A stretch of DNA of 63,944 nucleotides from assembly GCA_036510525.1 (NCBI GenBank), contig DATCDU010000021.1:1-63944 (forward strand), given 5' to 3'. Shown here piece by piece: positions 3,748-53,026 of the stretch (within the stretch, counting starts at the first letter, position 1; each line of letters begins with the position of its first letter). The notes below the pieces were generated by a model. That model saw only the letters and a program-made list of their open reading frames with translations, was not told the origin of the DNA and did not search any database. The stretch is from Minisyncoccota bacterium. Its GTDB lineage: Bacteria > Patescibacteriota > Minisyncoccia > UBA6257 > 2-01-FULL-56-20. The position numbers were made by a program, and so were the translations under genes.

Positions 3748-3860
3748 GTCGCCCCGCGACTCGAATGCTCGCCGTCGCTCGCATTCGGTCTGGGCACCGC
3801 CTCACGATATTTTTCTGCTGAAAAATATCGCTCCGGCGGTTCGATTCTCTTTGAAGACGG

Positions 3861-3971
3861 GCTTATTCTTTTTCCTCCCGGAAGGTGTCTCGGAGCCGCG
3901 AAGGCGGCGAGAGCCAAGGCGGCCGGTCAGCAGACCGGAACGCCGTCCTTTCGGGAGGAAAAAGAATAAGC
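3861..3971 (-). repeat. family-A GC-rich structured repeat (copy A3) closed by a perfect 20-bp inverted repeat
   Basis: GCTTATTCTTTTTCCTCCCG (3861-3880) is the exact reverse complement of 3952-3971. The interior matches the A1/A2 cores in reverse orientation (GGACGGCGTTC...GGCCGCCTTGGCTCTCGCCGCCTTCGCGGCTCCGAGACACC). Confidence 0.8.
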
Positions 3972-3973
3972 TG

Positions 3974-4045
3974 TAGCCCCAGGGGGAATCGAACCCCCAT
4001 TTACGCCGTGAAAGGGCGCTGTCCTAACCATTAGACGATGAGGCC
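3974..4045 (-). tRNA. tRNA-Glu (anticodon UUC)
   Basis: Manual cloverleaf: GGCCTCA/TGGGGCT acceptor, anticodon loop CTTTCAC, T-loop TTCGATT. No encoded CCA. Confidence 0.9.
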
Positions 4046-6141: not shown

Positions 6142-6180
6142 CAGTGTTTTGAAATCACAATTTGTGATTTCAAAACACTG
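6142..6180. repeat. AT-rich palindromic repeat, copy 1 (perfect 19-bp arms); likely bidirectional terminator
   Basis: CAGTGTTTTGAAATCACAA-T-TTGTGATTTCAAAACACTG, between the convergent GT2 and recG genes. Core AAATCACAAnTTGTGATTT is shared with copies at 9126, 11570 and 24078. Confidence 0.8.
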
Positions 6181-9125: not shown

Positions 9126-9164
9126 CTGCATTCTAAAATCACAAATTGTGATTTTAGAATGCAG
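9126..9164. repeat. AT-rich palindromic repeat, copy 2 (perfect 19-bp arms)
   Basis: CTGCATTCTAAAATCACAA-A-TTGTGATTTTAGAATGCAG, between tRNA-Arg and tRNA-Lys. Confidence 0.8.
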
Positions 9165-10166: not shown

Positions 10167-10199
10167 CATTAGAAAGATTAAAAAATCATGAAAAAATTT

Positions 10200-10227
10200 T
10201 TGACTTTATTTTTTGTCGCAATAAAAT
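10200..10227 (+). promoter_or_regulatory. sigma70-like promoter (TTGACT-16-TAAAAT), transcript probably leaderless
   Basis: The -10 ends 6 nt before the ATG at 10234. The upstream AT-rich module is shared with the promoter at 25484. Confidence 0.5.
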
Positions 10228-11569: not shown

Positions 11570-11598
11570 TTCTAAAATCACAATTTGTGATTTTAGAA
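11570..11598. repeat. AT-rich palindromic repeat, copy 3 (14-bp arms)
   Basis: TTCTAAAATCACAA-T-TTGTGATTTTAGAA in the 373-bp rpsG-fusA spacer. The 3' flank GATTCATAAGG is shared with copy 4. Confidence 0.75.
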
Positions 11599-11838: not shown

Positions 11839-13950
<2,112 letters not shown>

Positions 13951-13956
<6 letters not shown>

Positions 13957-14073
13957 AACAAACACCGCATGCCTTTTCGGGGACGGGTCGCGTTCTACTG
14001 AACGCGCCCTAACGCTCGGCACCTTCGTGCCTCCGCGATTCCCCTCAAAGGTATGCGGTATTGTGTTTTAGCG
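13951..14073 (+). repeat. family-B GC-rich structured repeat (copy B1) inside an imperfect long stem overlapping the fusA stop
   Basis: Outer arms are CGCTAAAACAAACACCGCATGCC and GGTATGCGGTATTGTGTTTTAGCG. The core GGGGACGGGTCGCGTTCTACTGAACGCGCCCTAACGCTCGGCACCTTCGTGCCTCCGCGATTCCCC is nearly identical to 24151-24215. Confidence 0.8.
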
Positions 14074-14142
14074 ACCCGTTCCATCGTTATCTGCGGCATG
14101 TTGTTCTTAGGGCGAAATAATTAAGAAAAGATTAAATATTTT

Positions 14143-14173
14143 TTGACATTCTAGGGTGTCGGAGTAGGATAAT
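14143..14173 (+). promoter_or_regulatory. sigma70-like promoter (TTGACA ... TAGGATAAT) followed by a 9-bp inverted repeat
   Basis: AGGGTGTCG (14152-14160) pairs with CGACACCCT (14203-14211), a possible operator. A second extended -10, TGCTATAAT, lies at about 14245-14253. Confidence 0.45.
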
Positions 14174-22639: not shown

Positions 22640-23839
22640 ATGGCAGAAAAAGAAAAGTTCGACCGGTCCAAGCCGCACTTGAACGTCGGCACGATCGGAC
22701 ACGTTGATCACGGCAAGACCACGTTGACCGCAGCGATCACCCACGTGTTGTTCATGAAGGGGTGGATCAAGAAAGAAGAGAACGTTTCACAGATCGACAA
22801 CGCTCCGGAAGAGAAGGCGCGTGGTATCACCATCGCGTTGCATCACTCGGAATATAACTCGGAGAAGCGCCACTACGCGCACGTTGATGCTCCGGGCCAC
22901 GCCGACTACATCAAGAACATGATCACCGGCGCCGCCCAGATGGACGGTGCGGTGCTCGTCGTTGCCGCGACGGACGGCCCGATGCCGCAGACCCGCGAGC
23001 ATATTTTGCTTGCCCGTCAGGTAGGTGTTCCCTCTATTATTGTCTTCCTCAACAAGGTTGACATGGTAGATGATCCGGAATTGATCGACCTCGTGGAGTC
23101 CGAAGTTCGTGAGCTCCTCACGAAGAACGGCTTCCCGGGCGACACCGCTCCGGTGATCCGCGGTTCGGCGCTCAAGGCGTTGAACTCCACCTCGGCCGAT
23201 TCGCCGGAGGCAAAGCCGATCTTGGATCTCGTCAAAGCGATGGATGACTTCTTTCCGGATCCGGTCCGGGAACTCGACAAGCCGTTCCTTATGCCGGTTG
23301 AAGACATCTTCTCGATCGAAGGTCGCGGTACGGTCGTCACGGGACGCATCGAGCGCGGTATGGTCAAGGTGAACGAGGAAATCGAGGTCGTCGGCCTTAA
23401 GCCGACCCAGAAGACCGTCGTTACCGGTATCGAAATGTTCAACAAGAGCTTGGATCAGGGCCAGGCAGGCGACAACGCTGGTTTGCTCCTCCGCGGCTTG
23501 AAGAAGGAAGATGTAGAGCGCGGGCAGGTGCTCGCGAAGCCGGGCAGTGTGACCCCGCACTCGGAGTTCGAGGGCGAGATCTACGTGCTCTCGAAAGAAG
23601 AGGGCGGCCGCCACTCTCCGTTCTTCAAGGGCTACAAGCCCCAGTTCTACATCCGCACCACTGACGTGACGGGCGAGGTCACCCTTCCGGAAGGAATGGA
23701 AATGGTCATGCCGGGCGATACCGTCAAGATCACGGTCAAGCTCATCACCCCGGTCGCGTTGGAAGACAAGATGCGTTTCGCCATCCGCGAAGGCGGCAAG
23801 ACCGTCGGCGCCGGAGTCGTGACGAAGATCATCAAGTAG
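22640..23839 (+). CDS. tuf: elongation factor Tu
   Basis: [24 protein letters not shown]. 399 aa. Confidence 0.97.
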
Positions 23840-23984
23840 CAGAAACAAAAACACCCCACGTCTACGGGGACGGCGTTCTCCCGCGGGACTCCTAAGAGTC
23901 GCATCTGCTGGCTGGCCGCCTTGGCTCTCAGCGCCTTCGCGCTTCCGAGACACCCCTTAAGACGAGGGGTGTTTTTGTTTCTGC
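23839..23984 (+). repeat. family-A GC-rich structured repeat (copy A1) inside a perfect 19-bp inverted repeat that starts in the tuf stop codon
   Basis: GCAGAAACAAAAACACCCC (23839-23857) pairs with GGGGTGTTTTTGTTTCTGC (23966-23984). The core GGACGGCGTTCTCCCGCGGGACTCCTAAGAGTCGC...GGCTGGCCGCCTTGGCTCTCAGCGCCTTCGCGCTTCCGAGACACC matches 38395-38480. Confidence 0.85.
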
Positions 23985-24077
23985 TTATGCCTGAAGATTG
24001 TCACGACTCCGGGCGCCTCTGAGAGGTGTGTGGGAGAGACTAATGGCGTATGTCAGAAAATGTAGAATTTTGTTGTA

Positions 24078-24106
24078 TTTTAAAATCACAATCTGTGATT
24101 TTAAAA
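24078..24106. repeat. AT-rich palindromic repeat, copy 4 (13-bp arms)
   Basis: TTTTAAAATCACA-ATC-TGTGATTTTAAAA. Confidence 0.75.
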
Positions 24107-24150
24107 CATTGAATTCATAAGGGTAAAACCAAAATAACAGCTACTCCTTC

Positions 24151-24215
24151 GGGACGGGTCGCGTTCTACTGAACGCGCCCTAACGCTCGGCACCTACGTG
24201 CCTCCGCGAGTCCCC
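24151..24215 (+). repeat. family-B GC-rich structured repeat (copy B2)
   Basis: GGGACGGGTCGCGTTCTACTGAACGCGCCCTAACGCTCGGCACCTACGTGCCTCCGCGAGTCCCC. Differs from B1 only in a hairpin loop and in the closing stem. Confidence 0.8.
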
Positions 24216-24293
24216 TCGAGGGCGATTTTTGTTTGCTTACGTTTAAACATTCGTCACGGCGCCGAGCGCCTCCTGAAGTGTTATAGTAAAACC

Positions 24294-24710
24294 ATGGAGA
24301 AAATCCCAGAGGAACCCCTGGAGAATCCCCCAGAAATGATCTGGCGTGAGGCTGGCCCAGGTTATGAAAATGTTTCTGTTTCATCTGAGGCCGGTTATCT
24401 CCACGCTATCGTTGATAAAAAACAGTCTCGGCTTTTTATTGAGAATTTTGAATTCAAACCAGAAAAGCGTGGCCAGGGATTAGGCACAGAATATTTGCAA
24501 TCGCTCGCCGTCGAAGCAAGGAATCGGGGCGTGAAAATAATTTTTGGAGAATTCGTAAGTAAGGCCGTTATTCGTGTCCTTATAAAAACCTTTGGGGAGG
24601 AGAACATTTTCTCCTATGATCTCAACACAAAAAATCTTTCTCCTGTTAATCTTGGTGAGATAATGGGAAAAGAGGAACCGTTCCGAATCCCGTTAGCGGT
24701 CGAACTGTAG
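24294..24710 (+). CDS. small GNAT-family N-acetyltransferase
   Basis: FEFKPEKRGQGLGTEYLQSLAVEARNRGVK (acetyl-CoA R/Q-x-x-G-x-G motif). Start at 24294 because the upstream part of the track ORF lies in repeat B2. Confidence 0.6.
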   Translation: MEKIPEEPLENPPEMIWREAGPGYENVSVSSEAGYLHAIVDKKQSRLFIENFEFKPEKRGQGLGTEYLQSLAVEARNRGVKIIFGEFVSKAVIRVLIKTFGEENIFSYDLNTKNLSPVNLGEIMGKEEPFRIPLAVEL

Positions 24711-24761
24711 ATTTCTGCCGCTGCCAATAGGTTCTGACGCCATCCACTAACCCACATAAAC

Positions 24762-24786
24762 AAAAAACCCGTTGCCGGGTTTTTTG
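24762..24786 (+). terminator. intrinsic terminator
   Basis: AAAAAACCCG-TTGC-CGGGTTTTTT. Confidence 0.85.
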
Positions 24787-24809
24787 CGAATCCAAACACA
24801 ATGCTGCGC

Positions 24810-24954
24810 GATCCGGACTGACATCGTAATCATGATAACAACCCCAAAATATCCGTCAAAACATTTTTAATCTTTATTTAATGTTTTCTTTTAATGCTTT
24901 TGCGAGGGGGTGCGAGGACTTGCGCCTCGTGGATCCATGATGTCAGTCCGGATC
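24810..24954. repeat. 145-bp element bounded by a perfect 16-bp inverted repeat (MITE-like or structured RNA)
   Basis: GATCCGGACTGACATC (24810-24825) pairs with GATGTCAGTCCGGATC (24939-24954). The interior is AT-rich and carries a copy of the TTTTTAAT...TTTAATG motif. Confidence 0.55.
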
Positions 24955-25041
24955 CAGCACTATGCCACCCCCGCCGACAGTTTATGGAATTGGGCATTAA
25001 AACTATCTAAAGTCATTTAAAGCCATCTATCAGTTACTTAT

Positions 25042-25069
25042 TTGACACTTTTGCCCGATTTGCTATACT
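25042..25069 (+). promoter_or_regulatory. sigma70-like promoter of rpsJ (TTGACA-16-TATACT)
   Basis: Hexamers 14 nt upstream of the rpsJ ATG. Confidence 0.6.
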
Positions 25070-25457: not shown

Positions 25458-25483
25458 TTTATTAAAAAATCATTAAATAATCT

Positions 25484-25511
25484 TTGACTTTATCTTTAAA
25501 TTCGATAAAAT
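25484..25511 (+). promoter_or_regulatory. sigma70-like promoter (TTGACT-16-TAAAAT)
   Basis: About 45 nt including the upstream AAAAATCAT.AAA..AT.TTTGACTTTAT are homologous to the promoter at 10181-10227. Confidence 0.5.
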
Positions 25512-25517
25512 GATGAC

Positions 25518-25597
25518 AAGGTGATGATCTGCTGAACTGCGGACCAAAAATTTTCGCTTTGGCGCAAAACAGCTACTTTCGTGGCTGTTTTTTGTTT
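25518..25597 (+). ncRNA. candidate ~80-nt small RNA (promoter to terminator), complementary to the downstream tRNA-like gene
   Basis: No ORF. Terminator ACAGCTAC-TTTC-GTGGCTGT plus TTTTTT at 25570-25597. 25550-25563 is the exact reverse complement of 25681-25694. Confidence 0.35.
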
Positions 25598-25647
25598 ACA
25601 TAGTTTTAATGACTCATTCTTTATATTGCTCAAGCCCCTATGGATTT

Positions 25648-37098: not shown

Positions 37099-38370
37099 AT
37101 GGAGCGATTTCTACAGATATTCAAAGTAAAGGAGCTCCGCAACAAGATCCTCATCGTGTTGGGGCTTTTGGTCGCGTACCGCGTACTCGCGGCGATCCCG
37201 ATCCCGGGTGTGAACGCGACGGCATTGCAGAACTATTTCAATTCCAACCAGCTGCTCGGTTTCCTCAACTTCTTCTCCGGCGGCGGCCTCGCGAACCTGT
37301 CGGTCGTGATGCTTGGCGTCGGTCCGTACATCACGTCCACCATCGTGATGCAGCTCATGACGATCATCTTCCCGAAGATGAAAGAGATGTATTACGAAGA
37401 GGGTGCCCGCGGCCAGGCCAAGTTCAACCAGTACTCGCGCTTGCTCACGGTGCCGTTCGCGTTCGTGCAGGCGTACGGATTTTTGAGCTTACTCATGTCA
37501 CAGGGCGTCATCCCGCGCCCGGACGCGTTCGACCTCATCCGTAACGTCATCGTGATCACATGCGGTTCTATGATCGCGCTCTGGCTCGGCGAGTTGATCA
37601 CTGAAGAGAAGGTGGGCAATGGCATCTCGCTCATCATTTTGGCAGGCATCATCAGCCGCATCCCGTCGAGCGTCGGGCTCGCGCTCGCGTCGTATACCGC
37701 GCAGTTGCTCACGGCATACATCGGCTTTATCATCGTGGGGCTCTTGCTCATCGCCGGCATTGTGTATCTGAACGAGGGCGAACGGAAAATACCTGTTGCC
37801 TATGCGCGGCGTGTTCGAGGTACCAAAATGTACGGCGGGGCACAAAGTTATTTACCACTCAAGGTGAACCAGGCGGGCATGATCCCGCTCATCTTCGCGA
37901 TCTCGGTGCTGCTCTTCCCGCAATTCCTGGCACAGGTTGTGGTGCTCATCTCGCCGACGTGGGGTCTTAGGATAAGCAACTTCGCGCAGGGATTCGTCGC
38001 GAATCAGCTTTATTATGGCCTGTTCTATTTCCTGCTTGTGTTCATATTCACGTATTTCTATACTGCGATCACGTTCAATCCTGAAGAGGTGGCAAAAAAT
38101 CTCCAGCAGAGCGGGGGATTCGTGCCAGGCATCCGTCCGGGCGAAAATACGGAAAAATATTTCCATGGCATCGTGAACCGCATCACGTTGTTCGGCGCGA
38201 CGTTCCTCGGCATTATCGCCATTTTGCCGATCATCGTGCAGGCCATCACCGGCATCTCCGTCGTCACAATCAGCGGCACGGCGTTGCTTATCGTCGTCGC
38301 GGTCGCTTTGGAAACTATGAGGCAAGTGGATTCGCAATTGACGGTTAGGGAATACGAAGGAATAGAATAG
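37099..38370 (+). CDS. secY: preprotein translocase subunit SecY
   Basis: 10-TM protein, 423 aa, conserved position. Confidence 0.96.
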   Translation: MERFLQIFKVKELRNKILIVLGLLVAYRVLAAIPIPGVNATALQNYFNSNQLLGFLNFFSGGGLANLSVVMLGVGPYITSTIVMQLMTIIFPKMKEMYYEEGARGQAKFNQYSRLLTVPFAFVQAYGFLSLLMSQGVIPRPDAFDLIRNVIVITCGSMIALWLGELITEEKVGNGISLIILAGIISRIPSSVGLALASYTAQLLTAYIGFIIVGLLLIAGIVYLNEGERKIPVAYARRVRGTKMYGGAQSYLPLKVNQAGMIPLIFAISVLLFPQFLAQVVVLISPTWGLRISNFAQGFVANQLYYGLFYFLLVFIFTYFYTAITFNPEEVAKNLQQSGGFVPGIRPGENTEKYFHGIVNRITLFGATFLGIIAILPIIVQAITGISVVTISGTALLIVVAVALETMRQVDSQLTVREYEGIE

Positions 38371-38394
38371 CAAAACAGCTTTTGTTTCTGAAGT

Positions 38395-38480
38395 GACGGC
38401 GTTCTCCCACGGGACTCCTAAGAGTCGCGCCTACTGGCTGGCCGCCTTGGCTCTCGCCGCCTTCGCGGCTCCGAGACACC
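38395..38480 (+). repeat. family-A GC-rich structured repeat (copy A2), 25 nt after the secY stop
   Basis: GACGGCGTTCTCCCACGGGACTCCTAAGAGTCGCGCCTACTGGCTGGCCGCCTTGGCTCTCGCCGCCTTCGCGGCTCCGAGACACC. Confidence 0.85.
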
Positions 38481-38531
38481 TTTCAAGAAGAGGATATTTT
38501 ATTCGATACTAGTGATGAAAAAATAGAGATA

Positions 38532-41607: not shown

Positions 41608-42069
41608 ATGAGCAAGCAATATCTAACGAAAGAGCGCTTGGAAGAGTTCAAGGCCGAGCTCGAGCAGTTGAAAAACATCCGGCGCAACGAGGTCGCCCAG
41701 CGTCTCAAGCAGGCAAAGGAATATGGCGATCTTTCGGAGAATTCCGAATACGCGGAAGCGCGCGACGAACAAGCCAATGTGGAGACGCGCATCTTTGAGT
41801 TGGAAGACCTCCTCAAGGAAGCGGTGGTCATTGAGAAGAATGGATCTCATAACGGTACCGTGGAGGTTGGATCGGTGATCACGATCAAGAAGGGCGATAA
41901 GACATCGGTCTACACCATTGTCGGCAAATACGAAGCCAAGCCGGAGGAGGGCAGGATCTCGGACGAGTCACCGTTGGGAAAGGCATTCTTAAAGCACAAA
42001 GCGGGGGATAAGATCAATGTCACGACGCCTGCGGGGGTGATGACGTATGAGATTTTGAAGATAGACTAG
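41608..42069 (+). CDS. greA: transcription elongation factor GreA
   Basis: GDLSENSEYAEARDEQ. 153 aa. Confidence 0.92.
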   Translation: MSKQYLTKERLEEFKAELEQLKNIRRNEVAQRLKQAKEYGDLSENSEYAEARDEQANVETRIFELEDLLKEAVVIEKNGSHNGTVEVGSVITIKKGDKTSVYTIVGKYEAKPEEGRISDESPLGKAFLKHKAGDKINVTTPAGVMTYEILKID

Positions 42070-42070
42070 C

Positions 42071-42134
42071 AACACAAAAAACACTCTTTCGCCTCCAGGC
42101 AGATGACCGTTCGGCGAAAGGGTGTTTTTGTGTT
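42071..42134 (+). terminator. long (~21-bp) A-tract/T-tract hairpin terminator
   Basis: AACACAAAAAACACTCTTTCGCC, a 19-nt loop, then GGCGAAAGGGTGTTTTTGTGTT. This is the same stem style that encloses the family A/B repeats, but here it is empty. Confidence 0.8.
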
Positions 42135-48540: not shown

Positions 48541-48613
48541 GCCGTTGTAGCTCAGCTGGTAGAGCAACTCCATGGTAAGGAGTAGGTCGCCGGTTCAATT
48601 CCGGCCAACGGCT
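48541..48613 (+). tRNA. tRNA-Thr (anticodon GGU)
   Basis: GCCGTTG/CAACGGC, anticodon loop ATGGTAA, T-loop TTCAATT. Confidence 0.9.
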
Positions 48614-48625
48614 CAGATAAAGAAC

Positions 48626-48667
48626 ATAATCCCCACGTTACGATCGTAACGCGGGGATTATATTTAG
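48626..48667 (+). terminator. long palindromic hairpin terminator
   Basis: ATAATCCCCACGTTACG-AT-CGTAACGCGGGGATTAT followed by ATTT. Confidence 0.7.
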
Positions 48668-52966: not shown

Positions 52967-52997
52967 TTCGATACATTAAATTTTCATTAAAAGTTTT

Positions 52998-53026
52998 TTG
53001 ACTTGGCGTTGTGGTACACCCATACT
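52998..53026 (+). promoter_or_regulatory. sigma70-like promoter (TTGACT-17-CATACT)
   Basis: The upstream TTCATTAAAAGTTTTTTGACTT resembles the promoter modules at 10181 and 25465. Confidence 0.45.

Follow-up and report, generated by a model that had tools for sequence, protein, structure and literature searches.

Small bacterial repeats that fold into hairpins have been described in several lineages. The REP, BIME and REPIN elements of Proteobacteria, which are accompanied by RAYT transposases, have a conserved palindromic stem headed by GTAG or CGTC, and their transcripts form stable hairpins able to stop transcription or to shield the upstream mRNA. Bacterial MITEs (Correia/NEMIS, ERIC, BOX and RUP) and the Rickettsia palindromic elements also form RNA structures, with effects on termination, processing or stability; in the MITEs, the terminal inverted repeats are conserved and direct target duplications are mostly present, and the Rickettsia elements insert in frame into genes. 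A different route to hairpins is template switching during replication (quasipalindrome mutagenesis), which creates or repairs them (Monttinen and Loytynoja, 2022, PMC8794818).

In this study, we analyzed a repeat family in a stretch of 63,944 nucleotides (the window), in which the original prediction had proposed a structured, multi-copy module with three "family-A" copies, A1, A2 and A3. A search with a covariance model, as had been suggested there, confirmed this: with model R1 and filters off, exactly five copies were detected in the window, with scores of 50-100 bits. The best non-member match reached 12.5 bits, and thus the repeat was far above chance. All three predicted copies were recovered at their predicted positions, and two further segments that had been called "family B" (B1, 13975-14048; B2, 24146-24222) proved to belong to the same family. 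After pooling of the five window copies with 60 genome loci and 78 metagenome loci, 122 distinct copies remained. All true R1 matches came from Patescibacteria/Paceibacteria MAGs and from peat or soil metagenomes, and single MAGs carried 7-11 copies within just a few 8-kb pieces. Thus, the three family-A copies are genuine members of a repeat family of ultra-small Patescibacteria. The viral contigs searched gave no match, on which ground phage origin was ruled out. With regard to known RNA families, a search of the whole window against Rfam 15 at gathering thresholds returned tRNAs alone, and positions 23800-24100 searched at E <= 10 matched only RNAI (19.9 bits versus a threshold of 47), which agrees with the claim that the module matches no named family. 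The literature searched contained no description of a Y-tipped hairpin repeat family either. Judged by Rfam and this literature, the family is apparently undescribed.

The conserved unit was an apex of about 68 nt with a Y-shaped fold. Above a basal helix (P1) stand two hairpins: P2, which is variable and carries the loop U-N-C-U, and P3, which reads C-N-C / UC / 5 bp / CUUC / 5 bp / UCC / G-N-G. Pairing in the apex was kept in 92% of cells compared with 33-54% in slid controls, and double changes were found in 22 of the 27 apex pairs. Unpaired letters of the junction and loops (GAC-GG, CUGCU, CCUUCG and UCCG-GA) were near-invariant across genomes whose coding DNA had diverged, which suggests that some putative reader recognizes the apex. 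Pyrimidine-pyrimidine mismatches were conserved as well (UC/UC in the P1 of B-type copies and U·C at the base of P2). Most A-type copies shared an 8-bp inverted repeat in P1 (TTGAAAGG/CCTTTCAA), which differed in B-type and other copies. The module of about 85 nt that had been predicted is real in A1 and A2, but it is not the usual form: the 68-nt type of A3 is the common one, and the module of about 85-90 nt in A1 and A2 is a long subtype with 22 additional nucleotides inside P2. In A1, this insert occupies positions 23877-23898 of the forward strand, with a hairpin GACTC-CTAA-GAGTC at 23887-23900, a motif that was present only in A1, A2 and loci L040, L080 and L171. The reported difference in the terminal hairpin was also reproduced, P3b being AGCGC-CTTC-GCGCT in A1 (23930-23943, forward strand) and GCCGC-CTTC-GCGGC in A2 and A3.

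Below the apex, the copies differ from one another, and the gene at which each of them lies is visible in its stem. The whole A1 hairpin spans 23839-23984 on the forward strand (core 23866-23956; 55-65 bits with R1), its core helices being P1 GGGG/CCCC, P2 GGCG...CGCC and P3a CTC/GAG. As predicted, it is enclosed by a perfect 19-bp stem (23839-23857/23966-23984, followed by 5 more bp) that begins inside the stop codon of tuf (EF-Tu; 22640-23839, forward strand), exactly at the G of TAG (23837-23839). The inverted repeat extends further than had been noticed: the 3' arm (23960-24012, forward strand) is the reverse complement of 23811-23863 over 53 nt with 81% identity, and the repeat reaches 29 nt into the tuf reading frame, including the stop codon, plus an A-tract. 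Therefore, the 3' end of tuf itself serves as the 5' arm of A1. The predicted 20-bp stem of A3 was likewise perfect (3861-3880/3952-3971). This copy (3861-3971, reverse strand; canonical 68-nt core 3878-3954; 100 bits) stands directly 3' of tRNA-Glu(UUC) (3973-4045, reverse strand), and its distal 3' flank (3833-3860, reverse strand) is a decayed inverted copy of the T-arm and 3' half of this tRNA (GGCGGTTCGATTC). A2 (38388-38486, forward strand) has a long-subtype core and lies 18 nt beyond the stop (38370) of a gene for 423 amino acids (37099-38370, forward strand), named secY in the original prediction, whose C-terminus ...REYEGIE was found upstream of copies at six loci. Its 3' arm still resembles the ancestral secY-end stem of relatives L003 and L004; the 5' arm was replaced, leaving a degraded outer stem. 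B1 (13961-14062, forward strand; 70.6 bits) has a B-type core at 13975-14048 and follows fusA (EF-G; 11839-13956, forward strand, stop at 13956), whose homologues carry Pfam EF-G domains. The stem of B1 starts with the final codon of fusA and its stop (CGCTAA), and complementarity, though decayed, runs on into the coding end of the gene. Finally, B2 (24146-24222, forward strand; 56 bits) is a B-type core that has no 5' arm, the remnant of an earlier hairpin at the end of tuf. Its 3' flank (24216-24290, forward strand) again corresponds to a tuf 3' end in inverted form, copied independently of the A1 arm, and the derived variant ..ACGTAAG.. in it is also present in the arms of the tuf hairpins of L013, L057 and L189.

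The same pattern was observed throughout the family. Outer stems were locus-specific, with a median of 29 bp and a maximum of 55 bp, and each was a reverse-complement copy of the adjoining DNA, in most cases either the final codons of a gene together with its stop or the 3' terminus of a tRNA or rRNA. Such inverted gene-end arms were seen at tuf, fusA, tRNA-Glu and many loci elsewhere; the tuf spacer of the window holds two of independent origin (the A1 arm and the arm of the B2 relic), and the A1 arm matches the window's own tuf allele. The long stem below the apex does not belong to the repeat itself. The stems had been described as being of the same style as ordinary terminators, which did not hold, because plain terminators in the window have stems of only 7-12 bp and the arms of the repeat are inverted copies of gene ends. 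For the same reason, insertion of the element into ordinary terminators was rejected: its stems are two to four times longer and contain copies of coding sequence. The hairpin at 42071-42134, cited as an "empty" terminator, gave no R1 match indeed; however, in its 19-nt loop, read by eye, some 12 out of 16 bases match the P2 hairpin, and it may be an eroded copy of the element.

These features allow a comparison with the systems mentioned above. Similar to REP, BIME and REPIN elements, the members of this family are small palindromic repeats, rich in GC and free of ORFs; they occur in many copies outside genes, typically at gene 3' ends and between cistrons, and are dispensable at any one site. 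On the other hand, they have no conserved tetranucleotide head (GTAG/CGTC) and their stems differ at every locus, the conserved part being a non-palindromic Y-shaped apex on a site-unique stem. The architecture is thus the reverse of that of REP elements, with the tip conserved and the stem built from the neighbouring gene. Small size, non-autonomy and presence/absence polymorphism are shared with bacterial MITEs and Rickettsia palindromic elements, whereas the direct target duplications of most MITEs are absent from this element, whose flanks are reverse complements of each other. Hairpins made by template switching (PMC8794818) resemble the family in their arms, one of which is the reverse complement of adjoining sequence, and which stay perfect through apparent multi-base compensatory changes, with no signature of G·U intermediates. 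The arms here behave in the same way, one being the reverse complement of the sequence beside the other and reaching into functional sequence (tuf, fusA and tRNA-Glu). However, that process is a general one acting on any stem, whereas here it would be tied to a conserved apex at more than 100 sites. Template switching linked to a specific, conserved and recurrent apex has not been described before.

Comparison among relatives revealed that the element is dispensable at a given site. In L188, L192, L193 and P0075, whose EF-Tu is 89-95% identical, the gap between tuf and rpsJ is only 2-16 nt and no R1 match was found after tuf; in L194 (EF-Tu 87%), a 72-nt AT-rich spacer follows tuf, again with no R1 match. 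The window and L189, L190 and L191 have the element together with 0.9-1.2 kb of additional spacer. Core identity was almost equal for the same locus in different genomes (0.78) and for different loci of the same genome (0.77), and one locus can carry an A, a B or a chimeric core (e.g., L057). The cores are thus mosaic and appear to be exchanged between copies.

With respect to placement, 65 of the 122 copies were located directly after a gene end in the same orientation, and only 7 in the opposite one (p = 7e-13), which strongly supports the earlier remark that placement at gene 3' ends was strikingly non-random. Across genomes, the genes upstream were recurrent: fusA and tuf nine times each, a gene ending in ...YEELPAL eight times and secY six times. 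Copies in antisense orientation were also found immediately before 23S and 5S rRNA, and others lay upstream of divergent genes; at least three genomes had 23S and 5S rRNA enclosed by copies in a conserved arrangement. Some copies (L072, L033, L078 and L132) occupied the centre of a palindrome, AAGAAAATAGT...ACTATTTTCTT, that is conserved and precedes a gene. Open frames crossed 30 copies and appear to be GC-rich shadow frames. The 65:7 bias is not predicted for a purely DNA-level selfish repeat; it is the pattern that an RNA function would produce, unless copying is directional.

A T-rich tract 5-14 nt beyond P1 was present in 33 of the 65 after-gene copies, and among all copies terminator geometry was found in 47 and the reverse geometry in 11. 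A U-tract 0-2 nt beyond a GC-rich stem was evident in A1 (U-tract GGGGTGTTTTTGTTT), B1 and A2, and absent from A3 and many long-stem copies. Thus, the terminator-like character that had been proposed applies to about half of the after-gene copies, which share with bidirectional intrinsic (Rho-independent) terminators an A-tract, a GC-rich stem and a U-tract right after the stop, but not to A3, whose stem has a U-run 5' and an A-run 3' on both strands and therefore shows the reverse geometry. The family also differs from intrinsic terminators in that the loop is a folded module of 68-90 nt instead of 3-8 nt, and in that many copies, including A3, have no U-tract or stand upstream of genes. Metatranscriptome reads came only from other organisms, where they represented tuf, fusA or rRNA, the contigs did not cover the organism of the window at its copies, and rRNA coverage ended at the mature 23S ends. 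A peat metatranscriptome contained one 151-nt contig over a B-type core with about 92% identity.

Changes within pairs were also analyzed with regard to the strand on which selection may act. In the core, G·U pairs were counted 13 times and A·C pairs 26 times; in the outer stems, the corresponding numbers were 106 and 82 (p = 0.09). Hence the signature of RNA selection on one strand, a large excess of G·U over A·C, was not found in either the core or the outer stems. P3b occurred as four discrete variants, each shuffled between A and B backgrounds, and single-stranded DNA of either strand gave an identical Y fold (z = -7 to -10). The claim that a folded RNA or single-stranded DNA is under selection therefore stands in part: compensatory changes do exist, but the G·U counts, the P3 alleles and the fold of either DNA strand do not single out RNA. 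Because G·U pairs were not commoner, P3 hairpins were shuffled, copies at rRNA were antisense and relatives had no element after tuf, the evidence argues against a one-strand RNA gene.

It is in this light that an RNA module dedicated to transcript 3' ends and acting in cis has to be considered, in which the apex would be the site for a lineage-specific protein or RNase acting in termination, processing or 3'-protection, the long stems would be selected RNA duplexes, and DNA-level copying would merely be how the hairpins arise. The orientation bias, the invariant unpaired apex letters, the recurrence after the same genes, the enrichment of terminator geometry and the conserved bracketing of 23S and 5S rRNA all speak for it, and the peat contig indicates that a copy of at least one relative is present in a transcriptome library. 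However, G·U was not enriched over A·C in any helix, RNA made from the antisense copies upstream of rRNAs would have complementary loops, the element is missing from the 2-16-nt tuf-rpsJ junction of close relatives, cores are mosaic with types swapped at a given locus, and A3 is the reverse of a terminator, so that we regard this explanation as possible but rather unlikely. It is clearly improbable that the element is a classical transposon of the non-autonomous kind, either a MITE or a REP accompanied by a RAYT- or HUH-type enzyme, which a genome-encoded transposase would insert into the loops of palindromes and terminators already present. The P1 of most A-type copies can be read as an 8-bp terminal inverted repeat, the two fixed-loop hairpins of the apex are similar to those that HUH or Y1 enzymes recognize, and presence/absence among relatives as well as the copies centred in a palindrome would fit such insertion. 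Nevertheless, the flanks are inverted and there is no direct target-site duplication, which indicates that the element is not a classical MITE, and the stems far exceed the ordinary terminators of the same genome and hold copied coding sequence, which would not have been palindromic beforehand.

Some other types of elements were also considered. In attC sites, the outer ends are conserved and the centre is variable; these sites, together with CRISPR, retrons, group II intron fragments and IS200/IS605 ends, were set aside because their anatomy is unlike that of the repeat. No arrays, reverse transcriptase gene or transposase adjoined the copies. A ligand-sensing or catalytic RNA, such as a small ribozyme that cleaves itself or a riboswitch aptamer embedded in a terminator, would explain a three-way junction with conserved junction letters, and nesting of a structured module within a terminator hairpin resembles the HMP-PP/thiS riboswitch (PMC6478431). 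That riboswitch is a single-copy 5' leader of one pathway, whereas the element is multi-copy, lies at 3' ends in either orientation and has no link to a pathway. Its copies follow rather than precede unrelated genes, tRNAs and rRNAs, are numerous in each genome with mosaic cores and are absent from close relatives, and the Rfam search of 23800-24100 gave no ribozyme or riboswitch match even at E <= 10. On the basis of this lack of a match and the genomic contexts, a riboswitch or ribozyme was rejected as extremely unlikely.

Taken together, we consider it somewhat probable (about 0.55) that the family is a non-coding, REP/BIME-like palindromic repeat restricted to a Patescibacteria (Paceibacteria-type) clade, which template switching and gene conversion have built and maintained, and which has been co-opted to serve as a hairpin at transcript 3' ends or as a terminator. 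Of the roles offered by the original prediction, a MITE or terminator-associated repeat comes closer to this than a 3'-UTR-derived sRNA or a protein-binding regulatory RNA. From the inverted flanks, we infer that fold-back or template-switch DNA synthesis may create and lengthen the stems and keep them perfect, and gene conversion or ectopic template switching, by which apices would move from site to site, may account for the mosaic cores. Once present, the hairpin would be transcribed as the 3' end of the upstream gene, and at about half of the sites, A1 included, it would have the A-tract, GC stem and U-tract of a bidirectional intrinsic terminator. Given this geometry, the likely effect in the cell would be transcription termination and 3'-end protection, and a factor acting on the apex in trans is conceivable. 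More speculatively, the apex might represent a new genetic unit, a non-coding "hairpin-tip" module that is copied to the ends of transcription units with the adjoining gene end folded back as its stem, and that is kept by a putative Patescibacteria-specific reader of its loops and junctions. Such a reader might end or protect transcripts in organisms with minimal RNA-processing machinery, and the way in which the module is installed relative to a gene boundary would then explain both the 65:7 placement and the mirror-image copies around 23S and 5S rRNA.

If the preferred reading of a repeat built by copying and co-opted at 3' ends is right, what looks like textbook covariation can come from shuffled hairpin alleles and not from RNA-level selection. 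The family would also offer a natural, datable series of hairpins made by fold-back copying, on which an origin of RNA stems by template switching could be tested, and it would point to a putative factor that recognizes the apex. In genome annotation, the hairpins overlap stop codons and give rise to spurious ORFs. Although the genomes of Patescibacteria are tiny and have scant spare DNA, this GC-rich repeat is present in them where the most highly expressed genes end and around the rRNAs.

The original prediction had placed three copies of a structured repeat in the window, and all three were borne out, both in position and in being alignable across the core described for them. The A1 core (23866-23956) is enclosed by a perfect 19-bp stem starting at the final base of the tuf stop codon, the A3 core (3878-3954, minus strand) by a perfect 20-bp stem directly 3' of tRNA-Glu, and A2 (38388-38486) lies 18 nt past the secY stop. 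Repeat finding in the window revealed a second pair, 13980-14051 (B1, after fusA) and 24151-24222 (B2, in the tuf spacer), which aligned with A3 through helices P2 and P3 and had an identical three-helix fold; thus, A and B constitute a single family. A covariance model, R1 (77 positions, 27 pairs), was built on 32 canonical copies, and with filters off it detected exactly these five copies in the window (50-100 bits; next match 12.5 bits). The common form measures 68 nt; A1 and A2 represent a longer, rare subtype in which P2 contains 22 additional nt (hairpin GACTC-CTAA-GAGTC).

A pattern describing the J2/3-P3 segment, run against prokaryote genomes at one per species, identified 72 loci, approximately 48 of which had a paired P3. 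All of the latter were found in Patescibacteria-type MAGs (Paceibacterota, Minisyncoccia, Parcubacteria and MFD bins with 0.83-0.88-Mb chromosomes), with several in each genome. The remaining matches, from other phyla, had unpaired P3 arms and were rejected as chance matches. R1 identified 60 copies in genome loci, and 78 came from metagenome loci (100 loci, mostly peat and bog), giving 122 distinct copies in total, a set in which divergent subfamilies are under-sampled since the collection scans relied on one sequence pattern. No copy was found in viral contigs, no family in Rfam 15 matched the element, and no description of it was found in the literature searched.

In the 60-copy alignment, which was fitted to R1, standard pairs occupied 92% of cells, versus 33-54% when partners were slid by 1-3 columns, and changes on both sides were observed at 22 of the 27 pairs, values that none of 500 shuffles reached. 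Although this alignment was model-fitted, the fold is real, because aligning the five window copies alone, independently of any model, reproduced it with 12 covarying pairs. Either strand, as single-stranded DNA, folded into the same Y shape (z-scores -7 to -10), and the fold is not specific to RNA. P1 of every B-type copy contained a conserved tandem mismatch of pyrimidines (5'-UUUCGGGG / CCCCUCAA-3', for example 13975-13982 / 14041-14048), which would read as tandem G·A on the opposite strand, and A-type copies had a conserved U·C at the base of P2.

Beneath the core, the outer stems were locus-specific and nearly perfect; with P1 included, their median length was 29 bp (quartiles 16-34, maximum 55), compared with 7-12 bp for plain terminators of the window. 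Beyond the stems, the arms extended further as inverted but decayed copies of the end of the adjacent gene. At A1, 23811-23863 paired with 23960-24012 (53 nt, 81%), a span including the final nine tuf codons and the stop, and similar arms were observed at fusA (B1 and its orthologues), at tRNA-Glu (A3) and at many further loci. The tuf-rpsJ spacer contains two inverted tuf-end copies. That of A1 matches the present tuf allele of the window, and the other, 3' of B2 (24216-24290), carries derived letters common to the tuf hairpin arms of the loci L013, L057 and L189. B2 is thus what remains of an older tuf-terminal hairpin, and A1, its arm freshly copied, arose between this relic and tuf. In A2, the 5' arm has been replaced, while the 3' arm continues to match the stem found at the secY end in relatives. 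The hairpin at 42071-42134, after a gene ending at 42069, was previously considered an empty terminator; it indeed lacked an R1 match, but about 12 of 16 bases in its 19-nt loop (TCCAGGCAGATGACCGTTC) matched the P2 hairpin, and it may be an eroded copy. Directly past tRNA-Thr (48541-48614), a 42-nt palindrome (48623-48664, AACATAATCCCCACGTTACGATCGTAACGCGGGGATTATATT) forms a tRNA 3'-end hairpin without the Y-shaped core.

Gene ends, called here as simple ORFs, directly preceded 65 of the 122 copies on the same strand (tRNAs included), whereas in only 7 the sole adjoining gene end was on the opposite strand (p = 7e-13); 44 copies had no adjacent gene end and 6 lay at contig edges. The recurring upstream genes were fusA (9), tuf (9), the ...YEELPAL gene (8), secY (6) and the ...SGAQSLQ / ...SGAESLQ gene (6). 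In about half of the copies that follow a gene end (33 of 65), a T-rich tract lay 5-14 nt past P1, and terminator geometry outnumbered the reverse geometry by 47 to 11 among all copies, A3 being one of the reverse kind. The GGACGG side of the core faced the gene boundary in every well-resolved case. Some of the 44 copies were antisense and preceded the 23S 5' end by 25-60 nt. Around the rRNA genes, copies formed a mirror-image bracket, with an antisense copy ahead of 23S, a sense copy past the 23S 3' end and a second antisense copy ahead of 5S. This was observed on one contig in L094 (305-4232) and also in L069 plus L011, L066 and L025, and at least three genomes conserve the arrangement. A group I intron (Rfam RF00028, 65.7 bits) was present within the 23S rRNA gene of MAG OY970358 (L069, 6327-6540). 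At four loci (L072, L033, L078 and L132), copies embedded in a conserved palindrome lay upstream of genes transcribed divergently. A conserved sequence, AAACCCTCCCTCGCTTTCGACCCGAGTGGAGGGTTGCTG, stood ahead of copies in five loci (L064 7266-7300, L049, L103, L089 and L156), where it had no ORF end and no Rfam match, and may represent the 3' terminus of an RNA gene not yet catalogued. The motif GGCATTAAAACTCTCT(T)AAA occurred just upstream of several copies (L042 on the minus strand, L167, L106) and in the window at 24978-25011 and 25595-25628, where it flanks an odd tRNA-like gene (25648-25720).

Contigs encoding eight close EF-Tu homologues were compared with the window. Four of them (L188, L192, L193 and P0075; EF-Tu identity 89-95%) had a tuf-rpsJ gap of 2-16 nt and no copy after tuf, and in L194 (87%) rpsJ followed 72 nt past tuf behind an AT-rich spacer, again without a copy; L189, L190 and L191 (93-94%), like the window, carried the element after tuf within a spacer of 0.9-1.2 kb. 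Gain or loss therefore occurs among close relatives, and the element is not obligatory for tuf expression. The window spacer (23840-25040, about 1.2 kb, measured to the next ORF starting at 25042) consists of ORF-poor repeats: A1, an AT-rich palindrome, the B2 relic and a 145-bp inverted-repeat element (24805-24959). The near-perfect palindrome, TTCTAAAATCACAA(T)TTGTGATTTTAGAA, occupies four intergenic sites (6142-6180, 9126-9164, 11570-11598 and, between A1 and B2, 24076-24112) and could serve as a protein-binding site, operator-like or of another kind. An AT-rich block of about 50 nt with a TTGACT/TTGACA -35-like hexamer (ATTAAAAAATCAT...TTTTTGAC...), repeated at 10177-10227, 14120-14170, 25461-25511 and 52975-53025, looks like a shared promoter module.

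The main competing explanation proposes a dedicated RNA module that a putative factor would read; it is favored by the bias in orientation and by the invariance of the unpaired letters. In RNA genes, tolerance of G·U exceeds that of A·C many times over; here, however, G·U pairs were as rare as A·C mismatches, both in the core (13 versus 26) and in the outer stems (106 versus 82 among 3210 cells, p = 0.09). Parity of this kind would be expected where DNA hairpins are what counts, where both strands do, or where one arm is re-copied from the other time after time. The P3 hairpin difference reported originally (AGCGC-CTTC-GCGCT in A1, GCCGC-CTTC-GCGGC in A2 and A3) was correct, but the covariation comes down to four discrete P3b alleles (AGCGC, GCCGC, GGCAC and GGCGC) found on both A-type and B-type backgrounds (for example, GCCGC on 25 A and 10 B copies; GGCAC on 8 and 21, respectively). 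Core identity was 0.78 for the same locus in different genomes and 0.77 for different loci in one genome; together with the allele mixing, this is the signature of exchange between copies and not that of compensatory substitutions made independently. The tuf site itself carried long-A, B or chimeric cores depending on the genome. Such mosaic cores, the antisense copies and the dispensability of the element also argue against the RNA module, which we regard as rather unlikely. Public metatranscriptome contigs gave no usable RNA evidence: those sharing words with these regions derived from tuf, fusA or rRNA of other organisms; a 151-nt contig spanned a B-type core, and rRNA coverage ended at the mature 23S ends.

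A transposase-driven MITE seems improbable, given that target duplications were absent and that stems copying coding sequence would be left unexplained, and the contexts of the copies do not fit a riboswitch or ribozyme, which is very improbable. Judging from sequence comparison, we favor, with a probability of roughly 55%, a palindromic repeat resembling REP/BIME, with inverted logic in that the apex is conserved and the stem is built from the flank. Fold-back or template-switch synthesis of hairpin stems has been documented (PMC8794818). In such a repeat, the stems would be made and kept perfect through this type of synthesis, the apices would be exchanged between copies through conversion, and the resulting hairpin may have been co-opted as a terminator or 3'-end hairpin.
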